This document shows positions 4,824-46,383 of a stretch of 64,000 bases of DNA, piece by piece; position 1 is the stretch's first letter, and each line of letters starts with the position of its first letter. The position numbers and the translations under genes are program-made. The DNA is from Candidatus Saccharimonadota bacterium. GTDB lineage: Bacteria > Patescibacteriota > Saccharimonadia > Saccharimonadales > UBA10212. Location: contig JALHRM010000002.1 of NCBI GenBank assembly GCA_022841445.1, forward strand, positions 25,581 to 89,580, written 5' to 3'. The notes below the pieces were generated by a model. It was not told where the DNA came from. It saw nothing but the letters and a program-made list of their open reading frames with translations, and searched no databases.

Positions 4824-4900
4824 GCCACCTTAGCTCAGCTGGTTAGAGCATCGGTTTTGTAAACCGAGGGTCGTCGGTTCGAATCCGACAGGTGGCTCCA
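4824..4900 (+). tRNA. tRNA-Thr (anticodon TGT), CCA encoded
   Basis: Folded by hand into a cloverleaf. Acceptor GCCACCT/AGGTGGC, D stem GCTC/GAGC, anticodon stem TCGGT/ACCGA with loop TTTGTAA, T arm GTCGG-TTCGAAT-CCGAC. Confidence 0.9.
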
Positions 4901-5007
4901 TTTAAGTACATTGCGAGAGTACTTAAGTCTTAGTTTGCATGTGAGGTGCAGTCTAAGAGGTGTTAGCATTAGCTTGAGTGGCCTTGCTGCCCTTAAGCTA
5001 ATAGCGT

Positions 5008-5092
5008 GCAGGGTTAGTGAAGCGGTCAAACACGGCTGACTGTAAATCAGCTCCCTACGGGTTCGGGGGTTCGAATCCCTCACCCTGCACCA
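5008..5092 (+). tRNA. tRNA-Tyr (anticodon GTA), long variable arm, CCA encoded
   Basis: Acceptor GCAGGGT/ACCCTGC, anticodon stem GCTGA/TCAGC with loop CTGTAAA, 13-nt variable arm, T arm GGGGG-TTCGAAT-CCCTC. Confidence 0.9.
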
Positions 5093-5141
5093 AATATATG
5101 CATTTCGAAAGAAGTCTTCTTGTTTGTTATGATATGAGCGT

Positions 5142-6275
5142 ATGAAGTTGAAGCAAAAGCATAGCAGTAGTACGCTAAGTACTCTAAAAAAATGGATTGT
5201 ATCCCACCGAGTAATCTCTCTTATCATTACTTCAATAGTAATATTGTTTATTGGCGGAGTTACATTTGCCCTCACTGCTCAACCCAGTGACGTAAAGTCC
5301 GCTAAAAACCCCAATCAAGTACAAAGTAACCTACCGCACACCAGGCTTAACGTGGAATCTGATCCTAATGGTTTAACTATGCAAAGTGAACAAGACTGTG
5401 ATAGTGAGAAACTTCAACAAATTACTCCATATACTTGTGCGAAGGTCGGCGCGTTCACTGCCGTCGTAAACGCTCCAGGATCTGTAAGTGTTAATGGCAC
5501 AACCTACCATTTCAAGACCTGGGATGGTTGTAGCGAGTCAAATGAAGACAAAAAAATCTGCAAGGTAGTAATCTCCGAAAAAGAAACAAAAATAATTAAA
5601 GCGGTCTACGAAATTAAGACAGGACAGCAATCAGTTACGACTTCTAAAACCATTGGAAAAAATGATACTGTATGTAAAACCTCATCAGCTCCAACTCAAA
5701 CCCTTGGTTTCGGGAAAGGACCAGGTAGCGCTTACTCATCATCTACCGGAAAGGATATGATTTGCACAATGAAATTCGAGGATATACCTGCAGGCGGTAT
5801 ACTTCAGAGCGAGCAGGTTGTTTATGCGAGCAAAAAGTTCACCAGCTGTGCTGATCTATGCAGTAAATACGACGCATACAACATGGGAACGTATTGGAAC
5901 CAGTATCGCATCGCTGGTCTCAGAACTTGCAGCTTTAACGGCATGGCAGGAGATTGTGGTTCTGCGGTAAGTTCGGGTAACGAGAATCTTCGCTCATTCA
6001 CAAAACCTGTAGAACTCACTTTTCGTGGCTTTGAGGTCTATGATGAGTACTATGGAGCAAGCGGTGACGGTTGCTATTATTACTATTGTCTTTCCAGGTC
6101 TACTTTTGATCGCTGGTCCGTGGTATACGAACCATCTACTAGTAGCGGGCTTACAAAAATAAAGATCATTGCCTACTATACACAAGAAGTGTTTTATGAC
6201 CCTACACAAGAACTTGTTACAGACTGGCAGAAGCAACAGAAGACATACTTTCAAAAGGGATTCGATGATTATTAG
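5142..6275 (+). CDS. hypothetical N-terminally anchored extracellular cysteine-rich protein
   Basis: 377 aa. One hydrophobic helix (ISLIITSIVILFIGGVTFAL), then a Ser/Thr/Gly/Tyr-rich region with 12 Cys. I recognise no family. Confidence 0.6.
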   Translation: MKLKQKHSSSTLSTLKKWIVSHRVISLIITSIVILFIGGVTFALTAQPSDVKSAKNPNQVQSNLPHTRLNVESDPNGLTMQSEQDCDSEKLQQITPYTCAKVGAFTAVVNAPGSVSVNGTTYHFKTWDGCSESNEDKKICKVVISEKETKIIKAVYEIKTGQQSVTTSKTIGKNDTVCKTSSAPTQTLGFGKGPGSAYSSSTGKDMICTMKFEDIPAGGILQSEQVVYASKKFTSCADLCSKYDAYNMGTYWNQYRIAGLRTCSFNGMAGDCGSAVSSGNENLRSFTKPVELTFRGFEVYDEYYGASGDGCYYYYCLSRSTFDRWSVVYEPSTSSGLTKIKIIAYYTQEVFYDPTQELVTDWQKQQKTYFQKGFDDY

Positions 6276-6337
6276 AAATAATACTATATGAGAGACGTTC
6301 TAACCTCAGCAATGATACTGCACTAAATTCCGCGTAC

Positions 6338-6362
6338 GCTCATCATCCGATGAGCCTTTTTG
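6338..6362 (+). terminator. intrinsic terminator after the Cys-rich gene
   Basis: GCTCATC-ATCC-GATGAGC hairpin followed by CTTTTTGTTT. Confidence 0.6.
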
Positions 6363-6379
6363 TTTGGTATCATAGAGGT

Positions 6380-6715
6380 ATGGACTTGCAATCACTTCAG
6401 CAGCGCGCACTAGATATTCGGGATAAATACGACAAGCTTAACACAGATAAAAGAGGCGTGATTTGGAACGAACAGCAAATCATGGCTGGCTTTGTTGGGG
6501 ACGTTGGTGATTTGTCGAAAGTTATTATGGCTAAGCATGGTCTGCGAGATATGGACGATGTTGATTCAAAGTTAGCGCATGAACTTAGTGACTGCCTGTG
6601 GTCTATTCTGGTGATTGCTGCTAAATATGAAGTAGACCTCGCTAAAGAATTTATGGAAACAATGGACGAGCTCGATATACGCATAGGACGTGAATTAAAA
6701 AGTAGTGGTCGCTAA
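6380..6715 (+). CDS. MazG-like nucleotide pyrophosphohydrolase (small all-alpha NTP-PPase)
   Basis: Segments FVGDVGDLSKVI and LAHELSDCLWSILVIAAKYEVDL are typical of MazG/YpjD-type domains. The ORF-track ATG at 6350 sits inside the upstream terminator hairpin, so ATG 6380 is preferred. Confidence 0.6.
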   Translation: MDLQSLQQRALDIRDKYDKLNTDKRGVIWNEQQIMAGFVGDVGDLSKVIMAKHGLRDMDDVDSKLAHELSDCLWSILVIAAKYEVDLAKEFMETMDELDIRIGRELKSSGR

Positions 6716-7311
6716 TTGGCCAAGTACTTCGGCACAGAGTAGTTTTTGAACTGAGCGTAAAGGCCTTTGGAGTAAATCAAGCGGTAGAAGCACTCTGCTT
6801 CCCACTTTGCGCCATTAAGGGCGTTGTGTGGGGTTGGCTCAAGCGGCAGACCGCAAAATGGGTAGATGCTATCCACATCCATAACCGACCACCCGTCTGT
6901 TAGCGGTACCAACTTCTTCAGTGACAGCATTTTAGCGTAAGCTATTGAGTGAAGATCTACCGATCTTCGATGAAGCCTAAGTGCCGAACGAGTCTGCTCG
7001 GCTTTAGCGTTTAGAAAAGGTACATCAAACGCCGCCACGTGTAACCCAGCAATTACCTTTACGGAACGCTGTTTGAGCCATCTGTCAAACTGGTCTATGG
7101 CTTCTCTTGGTCTTGGCTTGGCAGGGTCTTTTATATTCTGCTTGTCAAATCCGTTCACATATAGTGCGTTTTTATCATAAGTTTCCCCACGCCTTAAGCG
7201 ACATTCGATATAGAATATCTCTTTTGGTCGCATAAGATCAACCGCACCAATCGACAACAAACCATGTTCGTTCGGATTTAATCCGGAAGTTTCGATATCG
7301 AGCACTACCAT
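6712..7311 (-). CDS. DnaQ-like 3'-5' exonuclease domain protein
   Basis: 199 aa. MVVLDIETSGL ExoI motif, plus later Asp and His blocks of the DEDD fold. Confidence 0.7.
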   Translation of the reverse strand: MVVLDIETSGLNPNEHGLLSIGAVDLMRPKEIFYIECRLRRGETYDKNALYVNGFDKQNIKDPAKPRPREAIDQFDRWLKQRSVKVIAGLHVAAFDVPFLNAKAEQTRSALRLHRRSVDLHSIAYAKMLSLKKLVPLTDGWSVMDVDSIYPFCGLPLEPTPHNALNGAKWEAECFYRLIYSKGLYAQFKNYSVPKYLAN

Positions 7312-7381
7312 TTGATATGATTATAGCAAGCCACACTTTGCCGGTGCCGGCATTGTTTGTTACAATACTTCGGTCAATCTT

Positions 7382-7456
<75 letters not shown>

Positions 7457-7466
7457 GGAGACTATT

Positions 7467-7679
7467 ATGAATAAAGAGATACGCAGGTTGTATCGAAACA
7501 CTAACGACAAAGTAATTGCTGGGGTGTGTTCTGGTATGGGTGACTATTTGCGGCTAGACCCTGTATTGGTTCGTCTGATTATGATTGCGCTAGCGTTTGC
7601 CGGCGGAGCAGGTATCGCTGTATACATTGTGGCGTGGCTGATCGTACCAGAAAGTCCAAAGGCTTCTGACAAGGGTTGA
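7467..7679 (+). CDS. PspC-domain membrane protein
   Basis: 70 aa. LYRNTNDKVIAGVCSGMGDYLRLDPVLVRL is the PspC-domain signature, followed by one TM helix. Confidence 0.75.
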   Translation: MNKEIRRLYRNTNDKVIAGVCSGMGDYLRLDPVLVRLIMIALAFAGGAGIAVYIVAWLIVPESPKASDKG

Positions 7680-7733
7680 ATATAGTAACCGAAACTGTTA
7701 GAATAGTAGAAATTATTACAATAAGGATTCGTA

Positions 7734-7940
7734 ATGGGCAAGAAAAATGATAAGCGTAAAGTACTAGGATTGGTCTGTGCCGCCTGCGAGCAGAGACACT
7801 ACTACTCTACAAAAAATACCCAGAACACTCCTGACAAACTTGAAGTTAAAAAGTACTGTCCAGCGAAAAGAATGCCAGCCTTACAGGTCGAAACCAAGAA
7901 AAATCTTGGCCGCAACGAAGTAAAACCCCGCAAACACTAG
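7734..7940 (+). CDS. rpmG: 50S ribosomal protein L33 (atypical, C-terminally extended)
   Basis: 68 aa. The pattern CAACEQRHYYSTKNTQNTPDKLEVKKYCP matches the L33 zinc-ribbon layout. Confidence 0.75.
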   Translation: MGKKNDKRKVLGLVCAACEQRHYYSTKNTQNTPDKLEVKKYCPAKRMPALQVETKKNLGRNEVKPRKH

Positions 7941-7951
7941 CTCTCGCTAAT

Positions 7952-9892
7952 TTAGCGGTACTTATTAAGCAGTAAAATTGTATTTACGAATTCTGCATGA
8001 CTCCACACAAGCGGACTAACTCCTACCTGAGTGCCATCGATAGGATCAACCTGTTCTGCTAGCATGCCACTCGCAGTGATGTGCGCCTTAGTCCAGTCCA
8101 ATATCTCACGAGTCTGATTTTGGCGACCTGTCCGGGCGTAATACTGTGCCAGCCAAAGCGTACAAATTATCCAAGGGTTTCCTAGATATTGGGTTTGCTT
8201 TAAGAAATAATTATCATTCTCGTAGCGAATCGCCCCGCCAGACGGAGTTACATTGCACAGCATTCGTTCTGTGGTGCTCATGGCTTGCCGGAGCGCATCA
8301 CTGTTAAATCTTGATTCATCAAAAAACCACACCCCGTATGCACTAGAACTATCAACAGTGTTGTTATATTCGATTGTACCGTCGCTTAGCAGCAATTGAC
8401 TCTTTCGGTACACACCTCGTTCTTGATCAAACAACTGTTTCATATTGTCTGATATTTGGTTCGCTGCTTCGCGCCAGTGCCGAGATTCTTCACTGCGGTG
8501 CAGTAAATCCGCAAGACGCGCTGCTTCTTTGAGTGCCGCAACGGTCACCGCGACCGTATACGTATGAGTGGCAAATTTCTCCTCCCACAAGTCATAAGTC
8601 GCATGCGGTAACCCTGTTTCAGCATCGATGAACCGTGCCATGAAATTACTAGCTGGTGCAATCAGGCTTTCGTAGATCTTAGTAACAAAATCAATATCTC
8701 CGGATGCTTGCTGATACTTACCGATAGCATAAATGACAGTTGCCGTTTCGTCTTCCTGTATAGCTAGTTCTGGATGATTAAAATGCATCAGTGGGTGCCA
8801 GGTACTGCCAATACTGCGGTCTGGCTGATATTTATGCATCATGTAACCATCCGGATGAATGGTGTCAACACAAAATTCGAAAAAGTTCCTTGATTCCTCG
8901 TAGTATCCAAGATCTATCATGGTCAGCATAGTCAGCGCGCCGTCCCGTGGCCACACGTAGCTATAGTAGTCACGACCATAGTTATAAATAGAGGAATCAC
9001 AGCTCGCTATAATACCGCCGCGCTTGTCAATATGTGACTTGACTATCATTAGTGATTTTTTGAATAGCGGCTTGTAAGAGTCGTCCGTGGCATTAATATG
9101 CTGGTCGGCGATACTTAGCCAGTTCCTCCACCAACTGCGTGTTGTATCAAGTCGTGTTGATAGACCATCCTTCATGAATTTCTTATGAATAGATTCAGCG
9201 TCATGCTGGGCATGTGATGCGATAACCCAGTAATCGACATAGTCAGATGCAAAAGGTTCAAGCTTTAGACAGCAGCGAAGCACCGAGTCAACACCGCCAT
9301 GTTCCACCAGATTCCCAGAAAGCTCACCGTCCTCGGCATCCCTATAGGTGCCTTCTTTGCCTTCAACGCCATAATTACCAACCGAGAATTGGTCGAAAGG
9401 TTGATGATTGCTGTCTCTGGCATGAATAAGCAGCGAACAACGACCCTTGTAATCAAATAAGTAGTTTCCGCTTGGCACGTAGAGCACGGTGTCTGCTCGG
9501 CCGTCGTTGCTTATCTGAAAGACCTGGTGCATAAATATCCTCGGTTCGATTACATGGTCGGTCAAATTTTCGATCCTGATGCGACGACAAAAGGCATTAT
9601 ACTGGCTATCCACAAAATCGGATAACAATAACCGGACACCGAGTTCTTTGTGCTCGGCAGTGATACTACTCACCAAGGCATCTGATTCAAAATCAACACT
9701 AACATGCCAGCTCCCATCGTCTATCCAACTAAAGACACCGTTCACCCAGACGCCGATCATGTGGTGTACGCTGCGAGCAGTTGTTAGGTTTTCTTGGCCT
9801 ATATATGGGTAGTAAAAGTCGTGCACTAGCCCATGTTCATTCAAGCCTACCAACATTTCGCCGTTGCTAAGCATTACCGCTCTACCCACCAC
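7952..9892 (-). CDS. glycoside hydrolase family 15 (glucoamylase/glucodextranase-like)
   Basis: 646 aa. N-terminal beta-sandwich region plus an (alpha/alpha)6 region with YVWPRDGA and WEE blocks typical of GH15. The true start may be ATG 9874 rather than GTG 9892. Confidence 0.8.
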   Translation of the reverse strand: MVGRAVMLSNGEMLVGLNEHGLVHDFYYPYIGQENLTTARSVHHMIGVWVNGVFSWIDDGSWHVSVDFESDALVSSITAEHKELGVRLLLSDFVDSQYNAFCRRIRIENLTDHVIEPRIFMHQVFQISNDGRADTVLYVPSGNYLFDYKGRCSLLIHARDSNHQPFDQFSVGNYGVEGKEGTYRDAEDGELSGNLVEHGGVDSVLRCCLKLEPFASDYVDYWVIASHAQHDAESIHKKFMKDGLSTRLDTTRSWWRNWLSIADQHINATDDSYKPLFKKSLMIVKSHIDKRGGIIASCDSSIYNYGRDYYSYVWPRDGALTMLTMIDLGYYEESRNFFEFCVDTIHPDGYMMHKYQPDRSIGSTWHPLMHFNHPELAIQEDETATVIYAIGKYQQASGDIDFVTKIYESLIAPASNFMARFIDAETGLPHATYDLWEEKFATHTYTVAVTVAALKEAARLADLLHRSEESRHWREAANQISDNMKQLFDQERGVYRKSQLLLSDGTIEYNNTVDSSSAYGVWFFDESRFNSDALRQAMSTTERMLCNVTPSGGAIRYENDNYFLKQTQYLGNPWIICTLWLAQYYARTGRQNQTREILDWTKAHITASGMLAEQVDPIDGTQVGVSPLVWSHAEFVNTILLLNKYR

Positions 9893-9903
9893 AAACTCCC
9901 ATC

Positions 9904-11112
9904 CTAAACCTCAAATCCTAACTTACTAAGCCGATATTTTACGTCGTGGTATGCATTTATAAAGTTTATGTATGCCTCGTACGGGGTTTCATATGGGCTG
10001 AAGTAGGCGTGTACGTCACCATCGCTAAACCATTTGGTACACATGTAGTAAAAATGGTCGGAAGTCTGAAGCTTTCTCCAGTCATCAATAAGCTGCAGAT
10101 CACCGCTCCGTAAAACTAAATCTTGCATGCCATAAAGTGCTGCGATGGCTTGCTGCTGCATAGGGTTACCCAGCCAAGCAGTCAAATCCCGCTCCGTATC
10201 AGCCCATGTAACTGTTTCAGGCATGTCAACTCGGTCGACTGGATCGTAAGTATCAACTGCTTCTGACACCGTCATAAACGTGTGTGATGGGTCGGCTAAC
10301 CATTCGTTTGGCAGATGTTCTAAAAATTCAAAAATGCCACTTTCTTCCCACTGGTGCTCTCCAAACGTTTCATAGTCCATAAACAAATTAAAGTTGGTAG
10401 CATCGCCGGTTTCGCTTAACCAATGGCTAAACTTATTGGCAGTAAGCGGCCACTCCGACCATTCTCGGTTAGTAAAGCGAAAAGCAATATCATCACTCAA
10501 TTTATAATTTTTAAGAAGCAGACGAATATTGTCCGTATAAGTTGGCATATAGACATAATTGGGGCTGCGCCAGTCAAGAGCTGCTTCCCAACCCTCCGCC
10601 AAAATGCCCTTGTAGCCCGCCTTGTCCGCCCAGTATGCCAAATCATTATTGTAGGCCAGTTCTGTGTTGCGAAAAACTGTAGGTCGTTGTCCAAAAAGCT
10701 GGTCTACTTTCCTCCGATGCATATCCACTTGGGCCTCAAACTCACTTTTGGAATAAAAGAACGCCAAGCTATGATGGTATGTTTCTCCAACAATTTCTAC
10801 ACGACCAGTATCGGTTAGTTGTTTAAAGCTCGCCAAGGCTTCAGGCGACCACTTTTCCAATTGTTCAAGGACAGTGCCGGTGATAGACATGCTTAGCTTG
10901 AACTTTGGATGGGTATGCAGTAACTCAAGTAATTTGCGATTTGTTGGTATGTACGACTTGGCAGCTACTTTATGCAGTATTTCCTGGTTATTGGTACGAT
11001 TGCCAGCACTGGCGTCAAAGTAGGCATGATCAATACCGGCGTCAAAAATAGAATACGGCTTGATACGGTATGGCTGATGTACGTGAAGATACAGAACAAT
11101 TGCTTTAGTCAT
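9904..11112 (-). CDS. glycoside hydrolase family 57 (alpha-amylase / alpha-glucan-active enzyme)
   Basis: 402 aa. LYLHVHQPYR N-terminal signature and the later ETFGEH block are characteristic of GH57. Confidence 0.8.
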   Translation of the reverse strand: MTKAIVLYLHVHQPYRIKPYSIFDAGIDHAYFDASAGNRTNNQEILHKVAAKSYIPTNRKLLELLHTHPKFKLSMSITGTVLEQLEKWSPEALASFKQLTDTGRVEIVGETYHHSLAFFYSKSEFEAQVDMHRRKVDQLFGQRPTVFRNTELAYNNDLAYWADKAGYKGILAEGWEAALDWRSPNYVYMPTYTDNIRLLLKNYKLSDDIAFRFTNREWSEWPLTANKFSHWLSETGDATNFNLFMDYETFGEHQWEESGIFEFLEHLPNEWLADPSHTFMTVSEAVDTYDPVDRVDMPETVTWADTERDLTAWLGNPMQQQAIAALYGMQDLVLRSGDLQLIDDWRKLQTSDHFYYMCTKWFSDGDVHAYFSPYETPYEAYINFINAYHDVKYRLSKLGFEV

Positions 11113-12314
11113 ACGGCAACTCCGGCCCGATGTCTGTGATAAACGCTCATTAACGAAGTTGCCGCATCATCCCATGACAATCGGCTGTATTCACGACGAG
11201 CGTTGCTCAGGAGCTCGGTAGCGAGTGCGGGATTATTAACGACGGCCGCTATCTGGTTTGCCATTCCGTCAATATCCCAATAATTAACTTTTAAGCAGTT
11301 ACTAAGTACCTCAGCAACGCCTGATTGCCGACTTATCAGTGCTGGTGTTCCATAGCCAACGGCTTCTAGCGGCGTGAGACCAAATGGTTCAGAAATAGAT
11401 GGCATGACAAATAAATCAGCAATAGCATACGCGTCTCGCCAGTTTTTACCACGTTGGAAACCAGTCAGTACGACTTTGTCGGCAATGCCAAGAGCAGCTG
11501 ATTCTTCGATGAGTTCATGATATTGTTCGCCGCCGCCTACAATCAGAAACATCGTTTTAGGAGCTTTCTGGCTGACCAGCTGTGCCGCGCGCAAAAAATT
11601 CATCAATCCTTTTTGGATTGTTAGCCGACTAATGGTGGCTACAACTTTCCAATCTCGGGCTTTCATTTCTGTCAGGTAATGGTAGGCGTTGTGATCATCC
11701 AGAGGTGCAACATCTTCTGTATCGATACTGTTGTGAATGACACTGATTTTGTGCGCCGGGATATGGTAGTCGGCGATAATCATTTTCTTGGTGTGTTCGC
11801 TAACAGCGATGATGCGGTCGGCGACTAGCAGCGCCATGTATTCAATTTCTCGCACGACTGGATTGCCATAATGGCCACCAGCCCGATCTCGTTCAATAGA
11901 ATGCACATGCGCAATAAATGGTTTACCGGTCTGCTCTTTGAGTCGAAGCGCTGCCCGAAACGTAAGCCAGTCATGGGCATGAATAACATCAAACTGAGAG
12001 ACGCTAGCTAAATTCGCGACAGCATGCTCGTAGCCGTGCTGTTGACCGTGTATGTCCAGCCACTCTATGCGACCATCCTTATAAACATATTTATAACTGT
12101 CGTACGCAATGCCGGCTTTGTGCACCTGTTCAACATGTAGTGGTAGGGCGTGTGTGACTTTCATGAAGGGATACTGCTCGTTAGTAGAATAGGGCAAAAT
12201 AAATTCAATATCTGCTCCACGACTCGCCAGGGCTTTGCATAACTGATAACAAGCCACTCCAAGCCCACCGCTGTTATTTGGCGGAAGCTCCCATCCAAGC
12301 ATAAGGATTTTCAT
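11109..12314 (-). CDS. GT-B glycosyltransferase, glycogen/alpha-glucan synthase-like (GT4/GT5)
   Basis: 401 aa. MKILMLGWELPPNNSGGLGVA N-terminus and the C-terminal E-x7-E-like block (SEPFGLTPLEA). 4-nt overlap with the GH57 gene. Confidence 0.75.
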   Translation of the reverse strand: MKILMLGWELPPNNSGGLGVACYQLCKALASRGADIEFILPYSTNEQYPFMKVTHALPLHVEQVHKAGIAYDSYKYVYKDGRIEWLDIHGQQHGYEHAVANLASVSQFDVIHAHDWLTFRAALRLKEQTGKPFIAHVHSIERDRAGGHYGNPVVREIEYMALLVADRIIAVSEHTKKMIIADYHIPAHKISVIHNSIDTEDVAPLDDHNAYHYLTEMKARDWKVVATISRLTIQKGLMNFLRAAQLVSQKAPKTMFLIVGGGEQYHELIEESAALGIADKVVLTGFQRGKNWRDAYAIADLFVMPSISEPFGLTPLEAVGYGTPALISRQSGVAEVLSNCLKVNYWDIDGMANQIAAVVNNPALATELLSNARREYSRLSWDDAATSLMSVYHRHRAGVAV

Positions 12315-12444
12315 CTATGTATTGTTGCCCTTTACCCCTTATACACGTCTTATCTAAGAGTATAGTAACTTTACACTATAAGCACAACCGTAACTCAACC
12401 ATTTTTAATCAGTTATTTCAACATCGCTGATATTTCTACGAGGG

Positions 12445-12473
12445 CTGACAAAGCAGGACAGATTATATAGAAT
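12445..12473 (+). promoter_or_regulatory. candidate sigma70-type promoter for tRNA-Trp
   Basis: CTGACA, 17 nt, TAGAAT. It ends 26 nt before the tRNA 5' end. Confidence 0.4.
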
Positions 12474-12499
12474 GATGAGGCACTTTGTTACACAACTAT

Positions 12500-12574
12500 A
12501 GGGGCATAGTACAACGGCTAGTATAAAGGTCTCCAAAACCTTAGATCGTGGTTCGATTCCACGTGCCCCTGCCA
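12500..12574 (+). tRNA. tRNA-Trp (anticodon CCA), CCA end encoded
   Basis: Acceptor AGGGGCA/TGCCCCT, anticodon stem AAGGT/ACCTT with loop CTCCAAA, T arm CGTGG-TTCGATT-CCACG. Confidence 0.9.
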
Positions 12575-39135: not shown

Positions 39136-39224
39136 GCACTAGTATAACTCACCGACACTGGTAAAAGGCAAGCTCCTTTGCTACCATACTACTGTCTTTG
39201 TTCGCGTAAATATATGATAAACAA

Positions 39225-39295
39225 TAGGGCGTGGCCAAGTGGTAAGGCACCAGCCATTTGCGACTTGTTGCAAACATATCACAAGTTGTCCTGGC
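39225..39295 (+). pseudogene. 5' fragment of a tRNA-Gln gene with a 31-nt insertion
   Basis: 39225-39253 is identical to the first 29 nt of the intact tRNA-Gln, and the 4 upstream nt (ACAA) are identical as well. A 31-nt hairpin-forming insert follows (39254-39284). The copy resumes with GTTGTCCTGGC (intact gene: GTTTTGGTCCTGGC). No T arm follows. Confidence 0.8.
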
Positions 39296-39346
39296 TGCCA
39301 GGCCGTAAAGACTCACGACTTTGAAAATTTACGCATGCACATACAA

Positions 39347-39421
39347 TAGGGCGTGGCCAAGTGGTAAGGCACCAGGTTTTGGTCCTGGCATTCGGGGGTT
39401 CGAATCCCTCCGCCCTAGCCA
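39347..39421 (+). tRNA. tRNA-Gln (anticodon TTG), CCA encoded
   Basis: Acceptor TAGGGCG/CGCCCTA (U1:A72), D arm GCC-AAGTGGTAA-GGC, anticodon stem CCAGG/CCTGG with loop TTTTGGT, T arm GGGGG-TTCGAAT-CCCTC. Confidence 0.9.
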
Positions 39422-39464
39422 AGGTTGGTAAATGGGCTGAAAGTCCGTTTATCAACCTTGTTTT
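39421..39464 (+). terminator. long-stem intrinsic terminator directly after tRNA-Gln
   Basis: 18-bp stem (AAGGTTGGTAAATGGGCT / AGTCCGTTTATCAACCTT, with some G-U pairs), GAA loop, then GTTTT. Confidence 0.6.
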
Positions 39465-39568
39465 AGTTGGAGGCATCGAAACTCGGGTGCAGCATTCGGG
39501 GTGAAAAATGCCAGTGGCATTTTGCAAGAAAGTCTTTTTATACTTGCAACTGGTTGCGAGTATAAAGT

Positions 39569-39613
39569 TTCGGGGTTGCCAAAGGTGACTCGAATCCCTC
39601 CGCCCTAGCCAAG
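39569..39613 (+). pseudogene. 3' fragment of a tRNA-Gln gene with a 12-nt insertion
   Basis: TTCGGGGTT, then a 12-nt insert, then TCGAATCCCTCCGCCCTAGCCAAG. The last 24 nt are identical to 39400-39423. A more decayed GCATTCGGGGT copy lies at 39492-39502. Confidence 0.75.
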
Positions 39614-39625
39614 TATTTTTTATAC

Positions 39626-39654
39626 TTGCTTATATGTCTTAATACTTGTATAAT
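39626..39654 (+). promoter_or_regulatory. candidate sigma70-type promoter
   Basis: TTGCTT, 17 nt, TATAAT. It covers the ORF-track TTG start (39646), which argues for a downstream start codon. Confidence 0.5.
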
Positions 39655-39681: not shown

Positions 39682-41679
39682 GTGACTGAAGCAGTTTTTG
39701 GTTCATACAAATTGGTAGACCGTTACGCGCCTAAAGAAGCTTTACGGGGCTGGAATGCAGATCAATTTCTTGAAGGCGGCCTGCAAGGCCATTTAGACTC
39801 TGACTTGGCTGTCAGACAGCCGGGCAATATAGATGGCTATATGTTAGCCACTCTCCCGCCAGAAGCCTTGCCTGAGCTCTATAGCCATACCGTATTCGTC
39901 CTGCCAGAGGAGGGAGCAAAGAGCATCGGCACCGTGCATCAGCTCCCCATCAAGACAGTTAAGGGACTGCACGGTTTTATTCATGATTCAGTTATTTCTA
40001 TTATGCGGTCTGCTGCTGCTAATGGCGACCGGGTAACCACGGTTTACGCCAATCAACATGTGGGTCAGAACGAAGTGAACGGCCATCCTTTTAATAGCAC
40101 CTTGCTGCCCGTTCATTTTCATGTGTTCTCATACGATCAGGATGGTTTAGAAGATTATCCCGACAGGTTTCACAGGCTGGATTCATCGATTACTCAAAAC
40201 AGTTTTAATAAACACCTCCTACGAGACTCTTTGTTTCCGTTAATGGAGGATATTATCCAGCATGATCTTGCCGAACTTGACGTAGAAGTTTCACAAAATA
40301 AAAAGGGTGGGTCATTTGCGATATCAATCGGAACAACAGCTGACGAAGTATTTACTGAAAGAGAAATTGTAACTATTCGCGAGGTTAGCGCCTTGTGGGA
40401 ACTAAGAACCCAGGAACTGACAGATTGCTTCACTGATGGAGAAATCGAAGAAGCAACTGGTCGACCAACACTTTTGGGTGATGACATTATTCTTGAACGG
40501 GTAGAGGACTTCATAGGAAGGTCTGAATTCCTTGGGGAAAAGTCTATTCGATTACTTAGATTCCTTGCCAAGCACATCAAGGACGCCGATGAGGTCGATA
40601 TCTGGAGTTGGTTTTTCAAAGGACAAGCTGGTTGTATCGCATGGGAATTTGACTTTAAGACTAACAAACGTCGCATTATTCTTGCACCGCGTAGCCAGGT
40701 CGTACGATCAAAAAACTGGGCAGTATTACCAGACGGGGCCTCGCATATCGTGATAAAAGATAAGAATACTACTTTGCCACCAGAAACAACACAAGAGATT
40801 CTCGATTTTCAGCGTGGAGTAAATAGACAACTAAAAGCAATTATCGACAAACGATCCATAGTACGCGAAACACCGGATATTCACAGTAACCAGGGCGATG
40901 TATGGATTGGCGATCACACGGTTGTTAAACGATTTAGGTTTAGTGACGATCTCGCAAGGGAAGAGGCTGCACTAATATGGCTACAATCAGGACATCCAGG
41001 TATTGCACCAAAGCTTGTTTCATCAGCAGCCGAAGAAGGCCTGCTAGAAATGGAAAACGCTGGCAAAAGCTGGAAGCAAACAAATAAAAGAGATATTGGC
41101 GAGCTTATCAAGCACTTAACTCCTTTGTGGTTGGCCTTTGAGGCACCGACTTTTCCATCGAGCCTCATTGGCCAGGATATGATCAACTTGAGAATGCAGT
41201 TGTTCAACGAACAGGTGCTTTCTACTATTGCCGATGATAGCCTTAGGGAAAAAGCACGAAAGTGCATGGAGGATGTACTGGCTGCGCTATCTAGAACATC
41301 TCCAGGTATAGCTCATGTTGATGTCTCGCCGAACAATATATGCACTGACAGCAAGGGAAAAATCCGCGTTATTGATTGGTCTCGTGCAGCCTATACGTAC
41401 CCCATTATTGATATAGCAATGATCGCAGAAACATTTGGTCGCATGGTGCGTAGTGATAATGGCATTGAAATAGAATCCGAACTATGCGAATTAATTGATG
41501 CCTTGCCATTTTGCAAAGGGAATGAGGGGTTGATAAAATGCCTAGCCCTGGCCTTCGATATAAAAAAAGGAATTACGGGTCGCAGTAAGCCAAAATATAG
41601 TGACGATGAGGTAAACCGCCGACTTGAAACATTTATCAATATCGCACAGCATCACATGGCGCTGTCTATAGCTGCTTAA
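39682..41679 (+). CDS. two-part protein: uncharacterised N-terminal region (~420 aa) fused to an APH/choline-kinase-fold phosphotransferase domain
   Basis: C-terminus: IAHVDVSPNNI (HxDxxxxN) and IRVIDWSRAAY...PIIDIA. N-terminus: no family recognised; it contains LLPVHFHVFSY. GTG 39682 with GGAG 10 nt upstream was chosen, but the start is uncertain. Confidence 0.65.
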   Translation: MTEAVFGSYKLVDRYAPKEALRGWNADQFLEGGLQGHLDSDLAVRQPGNIDGYMLATLPPEALPELYSHTVFVLPEEGAKSIGTVHQLPIKTVKGLHGFIHDSVISIMRSAAANGDRVTTVYANQHVGQNEVNGHPFNSTLLPVHFHVFSYDQDGLEDYPDRFHRLDSSITQNSFNKHLLRDSLFPLMEDIIQHDLAELDVEVSQNKKGGSFAISIGTTADEVFTEREIVTIREVSALWELRTQELTDCFTDGEIEEATGRPTLLGDDIILERVEDFIGRSEFLGEKSIRLLRFLAKHIKDADEVDIWSWFFKGQAGCIAWEFDFKTNKRRIILAPRSQVVRSKNWAVLPDGASHIVIKDKNTTLPPETTQEILDFQRGVNRQLKAIIDKRSIVRETPDIHSNQGDVWIGDHTVVKRFRFSDDLAREEAALIWLQSGHPGIAPKLVSSAAEEGLLEMENAGKSWKQTNKRDIGELIKHLTPLWLAFEAPTFPSSLIGQDMINLRMQLFNEQVLSTIADDSLREKARKCMEDVLAALSRTSPGIAHVDVSPNNICTDSKGKIRVIDWSRAAYTYPIIDIAMIAETFGRMVRSDNGIEIESELCELIDALPFCKGNEGLIKCLALAFDIKKGITGRSKPKYSDDEVNRRLETFINIAQHHMALSIAA

Positions 41680-41725: not shown

Positions 41726-42823
41726 ATGTCTAAAAAACTTTCCTACCACAAAATTGTTAATTATGATGTTGCCGATCCAGCCAAAGTGCTTGCCCAAAAA
41801 GAGGGTCGAGCTACTGCAAGCAACATGCCTTTCGGGTATAGTGAACTAGAAGGTACCCGAGGTGAATCTGCCTATGTGTTTGATATGGGCGATAGATATG
41901 GTGCGCTCGTGCAAGAGGGGCTCGGCACCAAAAGCTTAGTTGCCCAAGCCGTATATGCCCAGACAGGCGAATCTCATTTTGCCGCCATTGCCAAAGATAC
42001 AGTTTCTACCTTTATAAATGACCTGGTGAGCGTTGGTGCAACCCCAGTAGTTAGTAATGCATATTGGTCCTCTAGTTCTTACGACTGGCTAGCCGATAAA
42101 AAACTTACTACTGACTTTATTAGGGGTTGGCGAGCCGCTTGTGATGAAGCAGGTGTAGTCTGGGGCGGGGGGGAAACCCAAGCGTTATCCCAGATGGTAG
42201 TTGATGGCGCTTTGGAGTTTGCCGGGTCTGTCTTTGGAGTTATAAGTCCTAAAACACAGCTTGTTACTGAAAAAAATCTAAAGGCTGGCGACGCTATCAT
42301 TGTCGTAGAATCTAGTGGTGTGCATGCTAATGGCCTCAGCCTTATCCGTGAAATAGCCTCTCAACTACCAGACAGCTACCAAACGAAATTGCCGAGTGGC
42401 ATCACATTTGGTGAAGCCGTGCTTCGACCGACACATCTTTACGCAAAGTTAGTGCGAGCATTATTTGCTGCAGATATAGACGTACACTATTTATCGAATA
42501 TTACTGGTCACGGATGGCGCAAACTTATGCGGGCTACTTCAACATTTACTTATCGGATAACGAACCTGCCAGATGTCGATGAAATATTCCCATTTATTCA
42601 AAAATATTCTGGCAATACTACAGAGGAAATGTATAGCAATTACAACATGGGGGCTGGCTACGCTATTTACATTAAACATGGTGAGGAGCTAAGAGCAACC
42701 GAAGTAATTACCGCGCTTGGGCTGAAGTGCTGGGTTGCCGGAAGAGTGGAAGAAGGTGAAAAGCAAGTCATCATTGAACCGCTAGAAATTACATTTGCCA
42801 GTGAAAGTCTCGCCGTTCGCTAA
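41726..42823 (+). CDS. PurM-family protein (AIR synthase-like, divergent)
   Basis: Colinear by eye with E. coli PurM: EGLGTK (DGVGTK), INDLVSVGA, GGGETQ (GGETAEM), ESSGVHANGLSLIRE (SSGPHSNGYSLVRK), NITGHGW (HLTGGGF), YNMGAGY (FNCGVGM). Confidence 0.65.
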   Translation: MSKKLSYHKIVNYDVADPAKVLAQKEGRATASNMPFGYSELEGTRGESAYVFDMGDRYGALVQEGLGTKSLVAQAVYAQTGESHFAAIAKDTVSTFINDLVSVGATPVVSNAYWSSSSYDWLADKKLTTDFIRGWRAACDEAGVVWGGGETQALSQMVVDGALEFAGSVFGVISPKTQLVTEKNLKAGDAIIVVESSGVHANGLSLIREIASQLPDSYQTKLPSGITFGEAVLRPTHLYAKLVRALFAADIDVHYLSNITGHGWRKLMRATSTFTYRITNLPDVDEIFPFIQKYSGNTTEEMYSNYNMGAGYAIYIKHGEELRATEVITALGLKCWVAGRVEEGEKQVIIEPLEITFASESLAVR

Positions 42824-44229
42824 ATCTCGGTTTTCCATTTTTTAGCTATCATCAGTGCCTTTTGCTCGGCGATACCGTGATAGTGTTGCTGCGGACTTTC
42901 GATGACTGATTTTTCTTGAGCGGTGAACTTTTGCCACAAATGCGACACGGTTTCGTCTGTGGACACCACTTCGTGAAGCGACTTACCGGACTCTAAAGCC
43001 TTGTGTGCAAGGGCCTTGGATGTTTCATGAGCTGACGCAAGACCATATTTAGTAAAAAGCAGATACAGTGGTTCTGCTGCAATCGCACCGCCGAGTAGGT
43101 TCAGATTACGCTGCATAGCATCTTTATCGACTTCCAAGCCAGACATAATCCGCTGCAATCGCACCGCCATTTCAGCACAAACTGCTAAGGCGATACTATA
43201 AAATCGAGCAGCCGCAGAATCAGTCAAGTCGCGTTGATGCTCGCTGGTAAGATTAAGGTTTGCGTTTACCAGTTGAGCAGTAAGTTGTTTGTTCATGCTG
43301 ACCACGTTCTCAAAATTCCAAGGATTACGTTTGTGAGCCATAGTAGAACTGCCAGTTTGACCTTTTTCAAATCTTTCGGCGACTTCGGCAATTTCGCTGC
43401 GTTGCAAATGTCGCATGTCATGGGCGAGGTTAGCCATAATTCCACCTGCAATTTGAATTTCGTCAATCAGTCGAACCACATACTCGGGAGGGATGACTTG
43501 AGTTGAATAGGGCGCAGGTTTGAGTCCAAGTGGCTCAAGCACATCGTGTTCAAAACCAACTGGGTCGTCAATGAACATGTCTAGCGCATTGTAAGCGCCC
43601 ACAGCACCAGAAAACTTACCAGGAAGCTCATCTGCCAGCGCCAATAAGGCATTACGGCTTACTCCAATGCGCTCGACATACTCGGCCATAGCAAAACCGA
43701 AGGTTACTGGTACGGCATGCTGGCCATGCGTTCGGCCAACCTGAAGCGTCGCGGCGTGCTTTTCGGTTAAATCTATGAGCGTGGCAAGCAATGCATCAAG
43801 TCTTGGGATAATGAGACCTGTTACCGCGTTTTTTAGTTGCAGGGAAGATGCTGTCGCCACAATATCGTAAGAAGTTGCACCAAAATGCACGTATGCAGCG
43901 GCGTCCTTGCCCGCCAGATTCTTCAAGCAGTTTACCAGCGCCTTTATGTCATGCTTGGTAGTTTTTTCTTCTTCATACACGTCAGCAGGCGACAATTTGA
44001 GAGCAGCCTGCTCAATCGCCATAGCATCAGTCATGCTGCAAATTTTGTGCTTGGCGAGTCCAAATGCCAAAGCAACTTCGACGTGTGCCTGGTAGGCGAT
44101 ACGCGTTGCCTCCGAAAGATATTTTGTGGTTTCGGCATCATAGTACCGTCCGTCCAGTGGGTCAATGCTGTTACCATCAAATGTCTTACTTGGGAGTACC
44201 GGGAGCTTGAAGGGCTTCATGGAATGCAT
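42820..44229 (-). CDS. purB: adenylosuccinate lyase
   Basis: 469 aa. Fumarate-lyase signature GSSTMAHKRNP and the PurB-type N-terminus (PLDGRY). Confidence 0.88.
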   Translation of the reverse strand: MHSMKPFKLPVLPSKTFDGNSIDPLDGRYYDAETTKYLSEATRIAYQAHVEVALAFGLAKHKICSMTDAMAIEQAALKLSPADVYEEEKTTKHDIKALVNCLKNLAGKDAAAYVHFGATSYDIVATASSLQLKNAVTGLIIPRLDALLATLIDLTEKHAATLQVGRTHGQHAVPVTFGFAMAEYVERIGVSRNALLALADELPGKFSGAVGAYNALDMFIDDPVGFEHDVLEPLGLKPAPYSTQVIPPEYVVRLIDEIQIAGGIMANLAHDMRHLQRSEIAEVAERFEKGQTGSSTMAHKRNPWNFENVVSMNKQLTAQLVNANLNLTSEHQRDLTDSAAARFYSIALAVCAEMAVRLQRIMSGLEVDKDAMQRNLNLLGGAIAAEPLYLLFTKYGLASAHETSKALAHKALESGKSLHEVVSTDETVSHLWQKFTAQEKSVIESPQQHYHGIAEQKALMIAKKWKTEI

Positions 44230-44231
44230 TT

Positions 44232-45197
44232 TTACTTCTCCTTACGATTTATAAGTGCTTGCTCGATGTTAATTTTGATTCGTTCCATAGGATCTTTACT
44301 GTAATCTGCAGGTACAAATTGTTCACCAGTTAACACCTCATACAGTTCTATGTAACGATTGGACACGTTTTGAATAAATTCATCGCTCAACTGCGGAACT
44401 TTCTGCTCCGGCTGCCCGCTAAATCCTTCCGTAAGCAACCATTCTCGGACAAATTCTTTAGACAGATGACGAGGCGTTTCAGTTGTCTTACCAATAACAA
44501 AATCATTGTAACTATCCCCGTAAAAATAGCGTGATGAATCGGGGGTATGTATTTCGTCTATGACGTGCAGAGTGGAGTCCAGTGTACCAAACTCATATTT
44601 AGTGTCTGCTAAGTACAAGCCTCGGCGAGCAGCCATTTGCTGAGCTTGTGCAAATAATTTTAAGGCGACATCGGCTATTTCTTCCCATTGTTCGTAGGTG
44701 GCGAGCCCGGTGCTAACAACGTCATTAGCACTTATATCTTCGTCATGGCCTGCTTCGGCCTTAGTTGCCGGGGTTATTATGGGTGAGTTGAAGCGATCGT
44801 ATTGCTTCATGCCATCAGGCATCGATACGCCACAAAGTTCACGTTTGCCGCTGGTGTATTCTCGCCAGGCATGACCTACCAAACAATCTCGTACAACAAC
44901 TTCAACTTTAAACGGCTTACAAAGGTGACCAATGGAAACATTGGGGTCAGGAGTAGCAATTAACCAATTCGGAACGATGTTTGATGAGGCCGTCAGAAAA
45001 TAGGCCGCTAACTGATTCAGTACTTGGCCTTTATGAGGAATTGGACGCGGTAGGATCACATCAAATGCTGATATACGGTCGGTCGCTACCATCACAAGTA
45101 TACCGTCGAATTCATAAACATCTCGAACTTTACCGTGGTAGACATTTTTTTGACCGGCAAATCGAAAATCAGTCTGTGAGATAGTGGAAATACTCAT
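44232..45197 (-). CDS. purC: SAICAR synthetase
   Basis: 321 aa (long form). YHGKVRDVY, DRISAFD and LADTKYEFG blocks. Confidence 0.88.
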   Translation of the reverse strand: MSISTISQTDFRFAGQKNVYHGKVRDVYEFDGILVMVATDRISAFDVILPRPIPHKGQVLNQLAAYFLTASSNIVPNWLIATPDPNVSIGHLCKPFKVEVVVRDCLVGHAWREYTSGKRELCGVSMPDGMKQYDRFNSPIITPATKAEAGHDEDISANDVVSTGLATYEQWEEIADVALKLFAQAQQMAARRGLYLADTKYEFGTLDSTLHVIDEIHTPDSSRYFYGDSYNDFVIGKTTETPRHLSKEFVREWLLTEGFSGQPEQKVPQLSDEFIQNVSNRYIELYEVLTGEQFVPADYSKDPMERIKINIEQALINRKEK

Positions 45198-45240
45198 ATA
45201 TTCAACTCTTATTGTAGCTGGGAGTCAAAAAAGTTACTAT

Positions 45241-46383
45241 ATGCTAAAGATGAATAGCGTTCAGGTAATTGGAATTGTTGGTGGCGGACAGCTTGGCCGC
45301 ATGCTAACACTTGCGGCAAAGCCACTTGGTTTTGATGTCGTTGTTGTAGATCCAGGTGATAATTGTCCGGCGGCCCAAGTAGGGGCAAAACAAATACAGG
45401 CTGATTTGTACGACGAAAACGCACTTAGCGAATTATCAGAAAGAGCCGACTACATCACCGTAGAAATAGAGCACCTCGACGCCAATGTTCTTGAACGGCT
45501 CGCTCGCGGCGGTGCCAAGATTAATCCATCGCCAAAGACCATTAGTCTCATCCAAGATAAGTACGAACAGAAAGTATTTTTAGCAGAACGAAGTATACCG
45601 GTCGCGGAGTTCACTATAGTCAACAGCCAAAAAGACGCTACCCAAGCATTGAGCAACTTCGGGGGTGTAATGCTGCTAAAGACAAGACACGGGGCATACG
45701 ATGGCAGAGGCAACACTAAAATTACTAACGCATCAGAACTTGATGCAGCCCTAGCCGAGTTTGGTAGCAAAACGCTGTATGCAGAAGCCTACGTACCCTT
45801 CGTAAAAGAGTTGGCCGTCATGGTAGCTCGAGATATGAACGGCAATGTTGCTACATACCCGATTGTTGAAACTACTCATGAGCGCAACATTTGTACGATA
45901 GTTCAAGCGCCGGCTAACATCTCAAACTCAATAAATAATCAAGCTATAGAAGTCGCTACAAATGTCGCAAATCAACTGGAAGGCGCGGGAGTATTTGGAA
46001 TTGAGATGTTTCTCAATAAACAAGAGGAGATTCTGATTAACGAAATTGCTCCGAGAGTGCACAATTCCGGCCATTACACGATGGATGCCTGCTATACCTC
46101 ACAGTTCGAACAACACATCCGGGCAATCAGCGGGTTACCGCTCGGCTCTTCGGCAATGTACGTGCCTGCAGCTGCCATGATTAATATTCTCGGTGAGCAT
46201 GACCGACCGACTGTCGTCAAAAACCTCAAAGAAGTCCTGAGCAAACCAGCTACTCATGTGCATTTGTATGGTAAATCACCAACAAAAGTAGACCGTAAGA
46301 TGGGGCATATAAACGTAACTGCAATTAACGCTGAAACAGCTTTGAAAGTAGCCAAAGCAGCAAGAAACAAACTGGAGATATAA
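45241..46383 (+). CDS. purK: N5-carboxyaminoimidazole ribonucleotide synthase
   Basis: IGIVGGGQLGRML N-terminus and ATP-grasp blocks. The ORF-track start 45184 overlaps purC, so ATG 45241 or 45250 is preferred. Confidence 0.85.
   Translation: MLKMNSVQVIGIVGGGQLGRMLTLAAKPLGFDVVVVDPGDNCPAAQVGAKQIQADLYDENALSELSERADYITVEIEHLDANVLERLARGGAKINPSPKTISLIQDKYEQKVFLAERSIPVAEFTIVNSQKDATQALSNFGGVMLLKTRHGAYDGRGNTKITNASELDAALAEFGSKTLYAEAYVPFVKELAVMVARDMNGNVATYPIVETTHERNICTIVQAPANISNSINNQAIEVATNVANQLEGAGVFGIEMFLNKQEEILINEIAPRVHNSGHYTMDACYTSQFEQHIRAISGLPLGSSAMYVPAAAMINILGEHDRPTVVKNLKEVLSKPATHVHLYGKSPTKVDRKMGHINVTAINAETALKVAKAARNKLEI

Follow-up and report, generated by a model that had tools for sequence, protein, structure and literature searches.

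A conserved three-hairpin element within partial tRNA-Gln copies beside the tRNA-Gln gene of Candidatus Saccharibacteria

We analyzed a stretch of 64,000 nucleotides (nt) from a Candidatus Saccharimonadota bacterium (contig JALHRM010000002.1, positions 25,581 to 89,580; hereafter the window), in which an intact tRNA-Gln(UUG) gene is situated between a 5' and a 3' partial copy of itself, each of them interrupted by an insert. The outer pieces can be read as two independent tRNA-Gln cassettes which leave the tRNA intact, hold a structured RNA under selection and turn over by recombination between repeats, and to this reading we assign a probability of roughly 55%. The downstream cassette contains a structured fold, the B element, while the upstream one is a smaller module, type A, with an insert in place of the anticodon loop. 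The loci of relatives with which the window was compared, from genomes, metagenomes and viral contigs, are labelled L001, L002 and so on, and the coordinates of the features are collected in Table 1.

The B element follows a fixed order, starting with GCATTCGGGG, which corresponds to the variable loop and the 5' strand of the T-stem, continuing with three hairpins, Pa, Pb and Pc, and ending with TCGAATCC. The three-hairpin domain of about 95 nt is placed exactly in the T-loop of the partial tRNA copy. The search pattern prescribed no more than the 5' flank, the upper part of the first hairpin and the motif GCAAG, and the family comprises 54 copies, from 46 metagenome loci, six genome loci (one copy each) and the window. 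The alignment of 35 distinct cores has 33 base pairs, and 96.4% of its cells pair, compared with 79.3% in shuffled and 25-43% in slid controls. Changes on both sides were observed in 23 of the 33 pairs (14.6 in shuffled and 7-10 in slid controls), and compensatory cells number 200, as opposed to 54±7 after shuffling and 13-18 after sliding. Base pairs supported by compensatory changes to this extent beyond the controls qualify B as a conserved structured motif. In Pc, G·U pairs occupy two positions, in 34 and 27 of the 35 sequences respectively, from which it follows that the folded strand is the tRNA-sense strand. The nucleotides of the junction (GCAAG, UGA) are invariant, and identity between genomes is about 76% for B cores as against about 50% for the flanking proteins. 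The window copy folds likewise on its own (z = -2.8), and its Pb departs in sequence from the family consensus yet stays paired. These comparisons show B to be a structured single-stranded fold of the tRNA-sense strand that is under selection.

B occurs in two layouts. In class U a complete 5' half with the anticodon arm is followed by B, TCGAATCC, a short antisense T-loop segment, a TATAAT or TACAAT 10-20 nt ahead of the intact tRNA, and the intact gene itself, which starts at +140 to +162 relative to B. In class D, the layout of the window, the intact gene comes first (tRNA start at -138 to -150 relative to B) and is followed by a terminator with a U-run, an antisense copy of the tRNA 3' part, GCATTCGGGG, B and a copy of the tRNA end. 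A hairpin with a U-run terminator was present between gene and B in 24/24 class D copies. The antisense copy in class D is degenerate and ends in CCGAGTG; the segment GGRTTCRAAC-CCGAGTGAA of class D relatives is the equivalent of window segment 39465-39491, which contains CTCGGGTG, a sequence that in the fold pairs with CATTCGGG of the next segment (B). The antisense segment is located on the tRNA-proximal side of B in both layouts, and the Pb hairpins of class D and class U copies can be nearly identical (L065, L113). Class U copies are without the acceptor 3' strand and CCA, and class D copies without the 5' half. In this way the two layouts show that each keeps the tRNA intact, the upstream one bringing a -10 element and the 5' part and the downstream one a terminator together with the 3' part. 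The distance of B to tRNA-Gln is always a fixed one.

In about half of the copies the flanks of B have 0 mismatches to the local tRNA, though acceptor stems differ between species; in the remaining copies the flanks are decaying and the core is intact. These matches show a concerted evolution of the flanks with the adjacent tRNA. Upstream copies are located behind the native promoter and ahead of the tRNA: the promoter TTTTGTATAAT, known from the relatives L107 and L026 that are without B, precedes the pseudo-copy and not the intact gene in the class U loci L050 and L063. L107 also has a T-arm-like GGGTTCGAAATC in the tRNA leader, about 40 nt before the tRNA, which may be a remnant of a lost upstream cassette. 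For class D, the flanks of L148 (with B) and L032 (without B) are 95% identical and the B-linked 3' fragment keeps the native CCA/TATAG boundary, this being one pair only with a shared flank of 5 nt.

We propose that B acts as an RNA made within the tRNA-Gln transcription unit, where an upstream copy would be a leader and a downstream copy a trailer reached by read-through of the terminator, and that this RNA would be trimmed by the tRNA-processing enzymes. The cassettes would be gained and lost by recombination, either of Campbell type or by gene conversion, between the tRNA-derived direct repeats. A single crossover between the chromosomal tRNA and a circle with a tRNA fragment and B would yield both layouts, and the reverse crossover would delete the cassette precisely. 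Such repeats should make a cassette easy to lose, and its persistence with compensatory changes therefore suggests that the fold is useful.

Exact repeats of this kind are present in the window. Segments 39221-39253 and 39343-39375 are identical in 33/33 positions according to the repeat finder, tRNA nt 1-29 in the former comprising the acceptor 5' strand, the D arm and the 5' strand of the anticodon stem; 39400-39423 and 39590-39613 are identical in 24/24 positions, and the latter corresponds to tRNA nt 55-76 with 2 further nt. Of the tRNA pieces, both the 5' one (29 nt) and the 3' one (22 nt) have exactly two occurrences in 64 kb, where 0 are expected from shuffles. The 10-nt GCATTCGGGG is found at 39388 and 39492, while TTTTTATACTTGC (13 nt) is exact at 39535-47 and 39617-29. 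Since the 5' arm of Pb is thus repeated after the cassette, the 3' arm (39556-66) could pair with either copy. The repeat finder also detected a near-perfect palindrome at 39537-50/39553-66. The second TTTTTATACTTGC copy overlaps the -35-like TTGCTT of a putative kinase promoter, TTGCTT-N17-TATAAT ahead of the kinase gene (GTG 39682), which was read by eye and is under the threshold of the promoter scan. The intact gene (39347-39421) scores 63.6 bits against RF00005 (threshold 29), which identifies it as a tRNA, and is identical to the tRNA-Gln of 16 Saccharibacteria species representatives; its sequence assigns the window to Candidatus Saccharibacteria (CPR). The stem of its terminator extends into the T and acceptor 3' strands of the tRNA (inverted repeat I1; fold). 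ARAGORN found only one intact tRNA-Gln at the locus, the outer pieces were called as tRNA neither by ARAGORN nor by the Rfam tRNA model, and there was no ARAGORN call for tmRNA, including the two-piece permuted form, in the window or in 35 scanned loci.

The repeats, the hairpin in the upstream insert and the anticodon-stem segment GTCCTGGC had all been pointed out in the original prediction, as had the intact gene with its own terminator, and all of these statements were confirmed, the terminator now measuring 19 pairs. It is their parsing which had to be revised. The displaced 3' third of the tRNA and a further variable-loop/T-stem remnant were correct as sequences and mistaken as separate remnants, both being flanks of one B element, 39492-39597. 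What was taken for a mere 12-nt insert is the loop and 3' arm of the covarying hairpin Pc. The motif with a T-run does recur, and its first copy is the 5' arm of Pb.

Type A was found in seven copies from six species. Homologous inserts after tRNA nt 1-29/30 are present in L009, L057 (two copies), L064, L072 and L085, in the order nt 1-29/30, hairpin insert, A-rich stretch, anticodon-stem 3' strand, ACCAAAA-like motif, spacer and intact gene. The anticodon-stem 3' strand matches the local tRNA (CCCAC in L064, CCATGG in L085), and in the window GTCCTGGC is the last loop base together with this strand. The hairpins of relatives are GUUGC/GCAAC or GUUGUC/GACAAC, and their homolog in the window is TTTGC 39257-61 / GCAAA 39270-74 (UUUGC/GCAAA as RNA). 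The 8-bp hairpin that the original prediction saw in this insert (39261-68/39281-88, one G·T) does exist as an alternative and forms in the minimum free energy fold, but comparison with relatives favours 39257-61/39270-74 as the homologous one. No promoter on the + strand of the spacer 39306-39346 was called by the scan, and since the TTGAAA-N15-TACAAT match there overlaps tRNA position +1, the spacer probably belongs to a leader whose transcription begins upstream of 39225, in accordance with class U relatives. A variant of type A is located inside class U copies in L080 and L121. The 5' and 3' modules, types A and B, each occur without the other elsewhere; because the window has both around one gene, the outer pieces look like one split gene, and the second, interrupted tRNA-Gln gene previously reconstructed from them is a coincidence.

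The 3' 22-mer matches 108 loci in species-representative genomes, nearly all of them metagenome-assembled genomes (MAGs) of Candidatus Saccharibacteria, the source genome not being one of them. Partial tRNA-Gln copies are present in 24/85 loci with enough flank; extra 3' copies start in the T-loop (nt 54-58), at +111 to +170 nt after the gene, and extra 5' copies lie at -107 to -220 nt before it. B is present in 6/108 species loci, and the covariance model detected copies in 6/97. On the tree of the neighbouring 313-aa protein the B carriers, with their layouts mixed, are scattered in at least 10 places among non-carriers. In L112 and L132 B takes the second or third place in an array of related modules, and it is parted from the tRNA by inserted DNA in L126, L118, L136, L139 and L150. 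Tandem arrays before one tRNA, with two or three B or two type A copies, were seen in L114, L116, L154, L155 and L057, and in some of these the tRNA-like 5' half between units is cut to the anticodon arm. Two further modules were observed. Type C, downstream of the gene in L050 (about 2990-3105, oriented), L132, L144, L156 and L116, has the order antisense T-arm GGGATTCGAAC, a hairpin with a Pa-like CCAGTGG top, more hairpins, CGAATCCCTCC...CCA and a terminator. Type E, in L025 (+86 to +240 after the tRNA), L043, L066 and L112, consists of ATTCGGGGGTTCG, an insert of about 55 nt with a conserved CGCAGGAACTCGTTCCGAG-like hairpin, and ATCCCTCCGCC; its insert is at a slightly different T-loop position and it forms arrays with B. 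The sequence downstream of B is 99.5% identical in L134 and L150, where the former has an intact tRNA-Gln(CUG) before the cassette; in the latter, unrelated DNA adjoins the final 15 nt of a tRNA end that differs slightly. This difference resembles a recent insertion or replacement at the tRNA.

In Saccharibacteria, tRNA-Gln is a genuine target of integrases. In viral contigs L001 and L002 the 3' part of the same tRNA-Gln lies uninterrupted beside a tyrosine integrase, beginning with the variable loop in one contig and with the anticodon loop in the other, and homologous integrases are found beside isolated tRNA-Gln fragments in L004 and L049. The fragment of L002 is preceded by an antisense T-arm-like GGAGGATCGAATC, as in class D cassettes. 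In L067 and L078 repeated 3' fragments surround small islands; these are classical islands with short open reading frames (ORFs) between fragments which carry the CUG-type anticodon arm of a different tRNA-Gln variant. When the window is held against the marks of an attachment-site (att) scar, direct repeats of a tRNA segment are there (24-nt and 33-nt, exact), and variable presence between close relatives with a native flank is seen in L148 vs L032 (one pair, 5-nt flank). No integrase is present in or beside the bounded segment, and the displaced fragments are interrupted by the 95-nt T-loop insert and the 34-nt anticodon-loop insert. In agreement with what had been stated before, neither tblastn nor a profile built from four integrases associated with tRNA-Gln detected an integrase-like ORF in the window, and there is no recombinase within about 4 kb of any B copy. 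The three origins offered in the original prediction fared differently. Serial integrase scars are right in a loose sense: tRNA-Gln is such a target, but the window fragments are interrupted by structured inserts, keep fixed distances and are never found with an integrase, while genuine att fragments are uninterrupted, begin at the anticodon or variable loop and have an integrase beside them. A decayed tandem duplication is not supported, because dozens of distant lineages have kept the inserts, with compensatory changes. The small tRNA-carrying insertion element came closest, the modules being compact cassettes with a tRNA part plus a promoter or terminator.

A role at the DNA level, which we regard as possible but doubtful, would make these non-autonomous recombination cassettes, with the fold as a single-stranded DNA site (cf. 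attC, CTX attP) for a tyrosine recombinase acting in trans. The T-arm copy and the antisense segment would rebuild a duplex T-arm target, and the cassette would enter the T-loop (B) or the anticodon loop (A). Both inserts do sit at 7-nt loops flanked by inverted stems, reportedly the classical crossover sublocations of tRNA-targeting integrases. Integrase elements use the same tRNA (L001, L002, L004, L049), the att region of L002 shares the antisense segment, cassettes stack in arrays (L057, L112, L132, L155), their distribution is patchy and downstream copies stand behind a terminator. All of this would be expected of recombination cassettes, and it has to be set against the absence of a recombinase in the window and near B copies, the absence of B from viral contigs and the fact that tRNA-Gln was the sole target seen, with one copy per locus region. 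Strong conservation of the loop and junction nucleotides of B is unlike the variable interior of attC, real att fragments at tRNA-Gln are uninterrupted, and upstream copies lie inside the tRNA transcription unit. By eye, no attC core sites RYYYAAC/GTTRRRY were noticed in the sequences read, no formal attC model having been run.

We consider it improbable that B is a sensor which controls folding or maturation of the adjacent tRNA-Gln, with the antisense segment pairing either with the flanks of B or with the real tRNA. Equally improbable is its more specific form, a sensing or protein-binding RNA in a T-arm mimic, riboswitch-like but with tRNA and not mRNA as the output, and with two circularly permuted wirings. 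The tRNA-proximal position of the antisense segment in both layouts, flanks kept identical to the tRNA at a fixed spacing, a window terminator stem reaching into the T and acceptor 3' strands, and an invariant junction as in ligand- or protein-binding RNAs could all be explained by such a sensor. The antisense segment is degenerate in many copies, including that of the window, tRNAs fold fast and stably before a downstream antisense is made, neither alternative pairing shows covariation, no ligand or logic is apparent and most Saccharibacteria are without a cassette, all of which disfavours it. Neutral debris of a tandem duplication or of deleted islands, similar through shared ancestry, is very improbable. 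tRNA-Gln is a hotspot with real scars (L067, L078), some flanks are decaying and the antisense segments are degenerate; compensatory changes in 23/33 pairs, far above both controls, largely refute debris all the same, the core is more conserved than the neighbouring proteins, the geometry is alike in dozens of lineages, and perfect direct repeats should quickly delete neutral inserts. The chance that the repeats are an artefact of assembly is negligible: the contig, of 113,970 bases, appears to be of draft or MAG type and short repeats can misassemble, but the architecture is found in more than 50 independent assemblies from different studies, closed chromosomes included.

Several results weigh against the reading as two RNA-carrying cassettes that we prefer. 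Because single-stranded DNA, when folded, tolerates G·T pairs too, the strand asymmetry is no proof of RNA. Downstream B is always behind an intrinsic terminator and without its own promoter, and would become RNA only by read-through; its position fits a role at the DNA level as well as one at the RNA level. The junction-closing helices proposed by RNAalifold involve only invariant, tRNA-derived columns, for which no covariation test is possible, and the degeneracy of the antisense segment in many copies, that of the window among them, counts here too. Type A is represented by seven divergent copies, too few for covariation statistics. The relation between B-core and host-protein distances is weak and non-significant (Mantel r=0.31, p=0.12) and favours neither vertical nor horizontal descent. 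Finally, genes downstream of B copies are heterogeneous, with no recombinase among them and no conserved gene of the kind expected for a cis-regulator.

Other candidates were tried and rejected. A cis-regulator of the downstream gene does not agree with the lack of a shared downstream gene among B loci. B is not a tRNA intron, as a full 5' half and a full 3' end never occur together in one copy, and Rfam gave no match to intron families. For a guide RNA, consisting of a scaffold and a tRNA-matching guide, there is no nuclease gene nearby, the intact neighbour would be a self-target, and the tRNA-matching segment is on opposite sides in the two layouts. An origin from phages was rejected on the basis of 2.9 million viral contigs, in which two different B patterns and the 5' 29-mer had 0 matches. 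There was no Rfam 15 match for B in the window or in class U or class D relatives, where only the true tRNA reaches the gathering score; other low-E matches in L127 are on the terminator tail, far below threshold, and the mascRNA model matches only the true tRNA, weakly. No published description of B was found in full-text literature searches.

Upstream of the locus, on the opposite strand, are genes for a VanY-type peptidase, a 313-aa protein without Pfam match and two GT4 glycosyltransferases, and downstream those for an APH-like kinase, a PurM-like protein, purB, purC and purK. The 313-aa gene adjoins tRNA-Gln in 64 related loci and the glycosyltransferase in 41, while the kinase and the PurM-like gene are beside it in 0 related loci. 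Because the former neighbours are shared and the latter are not, the tRNA is placed at the edge of a conserved block of envelope genes with variable content downstream, and the boundary proposed in the original prediction is borne out. Flanking proteins are only about 50% identical to those of the best relatives. The kinase, directly downstream (39682-41679, 665 aa, GTG start), had no homolog other than itself at E<1e-20 in a collection of 5.8 billion proteins, and none in 150 related loci. The PurM-like gene with purB, purC and purK (41726-46383) is present in an otherwise Saccharibacteria-looking genome, and these are not neighbours of tRNA-Gln in related loci; to our knowledge, Saccharibacteria are generally described as being without de novo purine synthesis. 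Four further tRNA genes (Thr, Tyr, Thr, Trp) are located at 4824-12574; the B model, whose only match in the window is the B element at 39492-39597, found nothing at these four tRNAs or elsewhere, their own partial copies not having been searched for.

Table 1. Features of the tRNA-Gln locus in the window and of related viral fragments
Feature	Position	Strand	Remarks
Direct repeat copy 1, start of type A module	39221-39253	+	ACAA and tRNA-Gln nt 1-29
Type A module	39225-39305	+	recurs in six species
Type A insert replacing the anticodon loop, ~34 nt	39254-39287	+	homologous inserts in relatives
Anticodon-stem 3' segment and fold-back	39288-39305	+	GTCCTGGC 39288-95; CCTGG 39290-94 / CCAGG 39298-302
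Spacer, type A to intact gene	39306-39346	+	TTGAAA-N15-TACAAT match overlaps tRNA position +1
Intact tRNA-Gln(UUG), encoded CCA	39347-39421	+	ARAGORN; Rfam RF00005
Intrinsic terminator	39420-39464	+	19-pair hairpin 39420-39460 from CCA end, then TTTT
Degenerate antisense copy of tRNA 3' third	39465-39491	+	TAG..GGAGG..ATCGAAAC; inverted repeat I1; fold
B element, 106 nt	39492-39597	+	covariance model 89.2 bits, E=2.6e-18, sole window match
Hairpin Pa	39502-26	+	10 pairs, loop AGU in family alignment
Hairpin Pb	39529-71	+	long, variable; first TTTTTATACTTGC is its 5' arm
Hairpin Pc	39573-91	+	8 pairs, loop GAA in family alignment
Direct repeat copy 2, 3' end of class D cassette	39590-39613	+	T-loop through CCA and AG
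T-run, second TTTTTATACTTGC (39617-29), promoter-like TTGCTT-N17-TATAAT (39626-54)	39614-39654	+	putative
Attachment-site-like 3' fragments	L001 5065-5086; L002 7-28		viral contigs

What looked like fossil pieces of a tRNA turns out to frame a well-supported structured nucleic-acid fold, a new one, restricted to a single tRNA and to one phylum of ultra-small episymbionts, about whose non-coding repertoire very little is known. Its options can be tested: an RNA with a cellular role, a recombination site of folded DNA or a regulator of tRNA maturation. The model should help annotators to avoid calling such pieces pseudogenes or prophage boundaries, and in Saccharibacteria the locus identifies a hotspot of recombination on the border of a conserved cluster of cell-envelope genes.

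Where partial tRNA copies accompany a tRNA gene, they are usually taken for fossils of integrated elements. Closest to the cassettes among known systems are such tRNA gene fragments, the attL/attR direct repeats which mobile elements leave on integration (van der Gulik et al. 2023, PMC9897764), together with RNAs matured by way of tRNA-like ends. The cassettes resemble such att fragments in that partial copies lie beside an intact gene, the incoming DNA carries the displaced part and leaves the gene intact, the site is a boundary of variable content and the same tRNA is used by integrase elements. Unlike them, the bounded segment is only about 120-190 nt, without genes and without an integrase, the fragment is interrupted by a conserved structured loop insert, cassettes exist in both polarities (5' part with promoter, 3' part with terminator), and their geometry is conserved across distant lineages. 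With attC and the folded attP of CTX type B shares a strand-specific fold, structure kept more than sequence, inverted segments which can rebuild a duplex target and the arraying of units at one site; it differs by a strongly conserved interior sequence, a tRNA loop as target, no IntI/Xer-type gene near B and no R/L box motifs noticed by eye. Extra sequence in a tRNA loop, including non-canonical positions in the T-loop, is known from archaeal intron-containing, split and permuted tRNAs and from bacterial group I tRNA introns, and tRNA halves separated on DNA from split and permuted genes, but here there is no complete B-carrying tRNA, an intact intron-less gene accompanies B, no intron family matches and the insert is too small for a group I core. 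Some RNAs are matured by way of tRNA-like ends or spacers, for example mascRNA from MALAT1, 3'ETS-leuZ of E. coli and bacterial YrlA. As in these, B is a structured RNA linked to a tRNA module in a leader or trailer, for which release of RNase P/Z type would be possible by analogy; unlike them, it lies inside the T-loop of an incomplete copy of the tRNA next to it, and shares no similarity of sequence or model. We know of no described precedent for the combination of a structured domain in the T-loop, mirror layouts and concerted flanks. The cassette is tRNA-restoring, as are mobile elements that target tRNA genes, but it is miniature, gene-less and built around a new fold.

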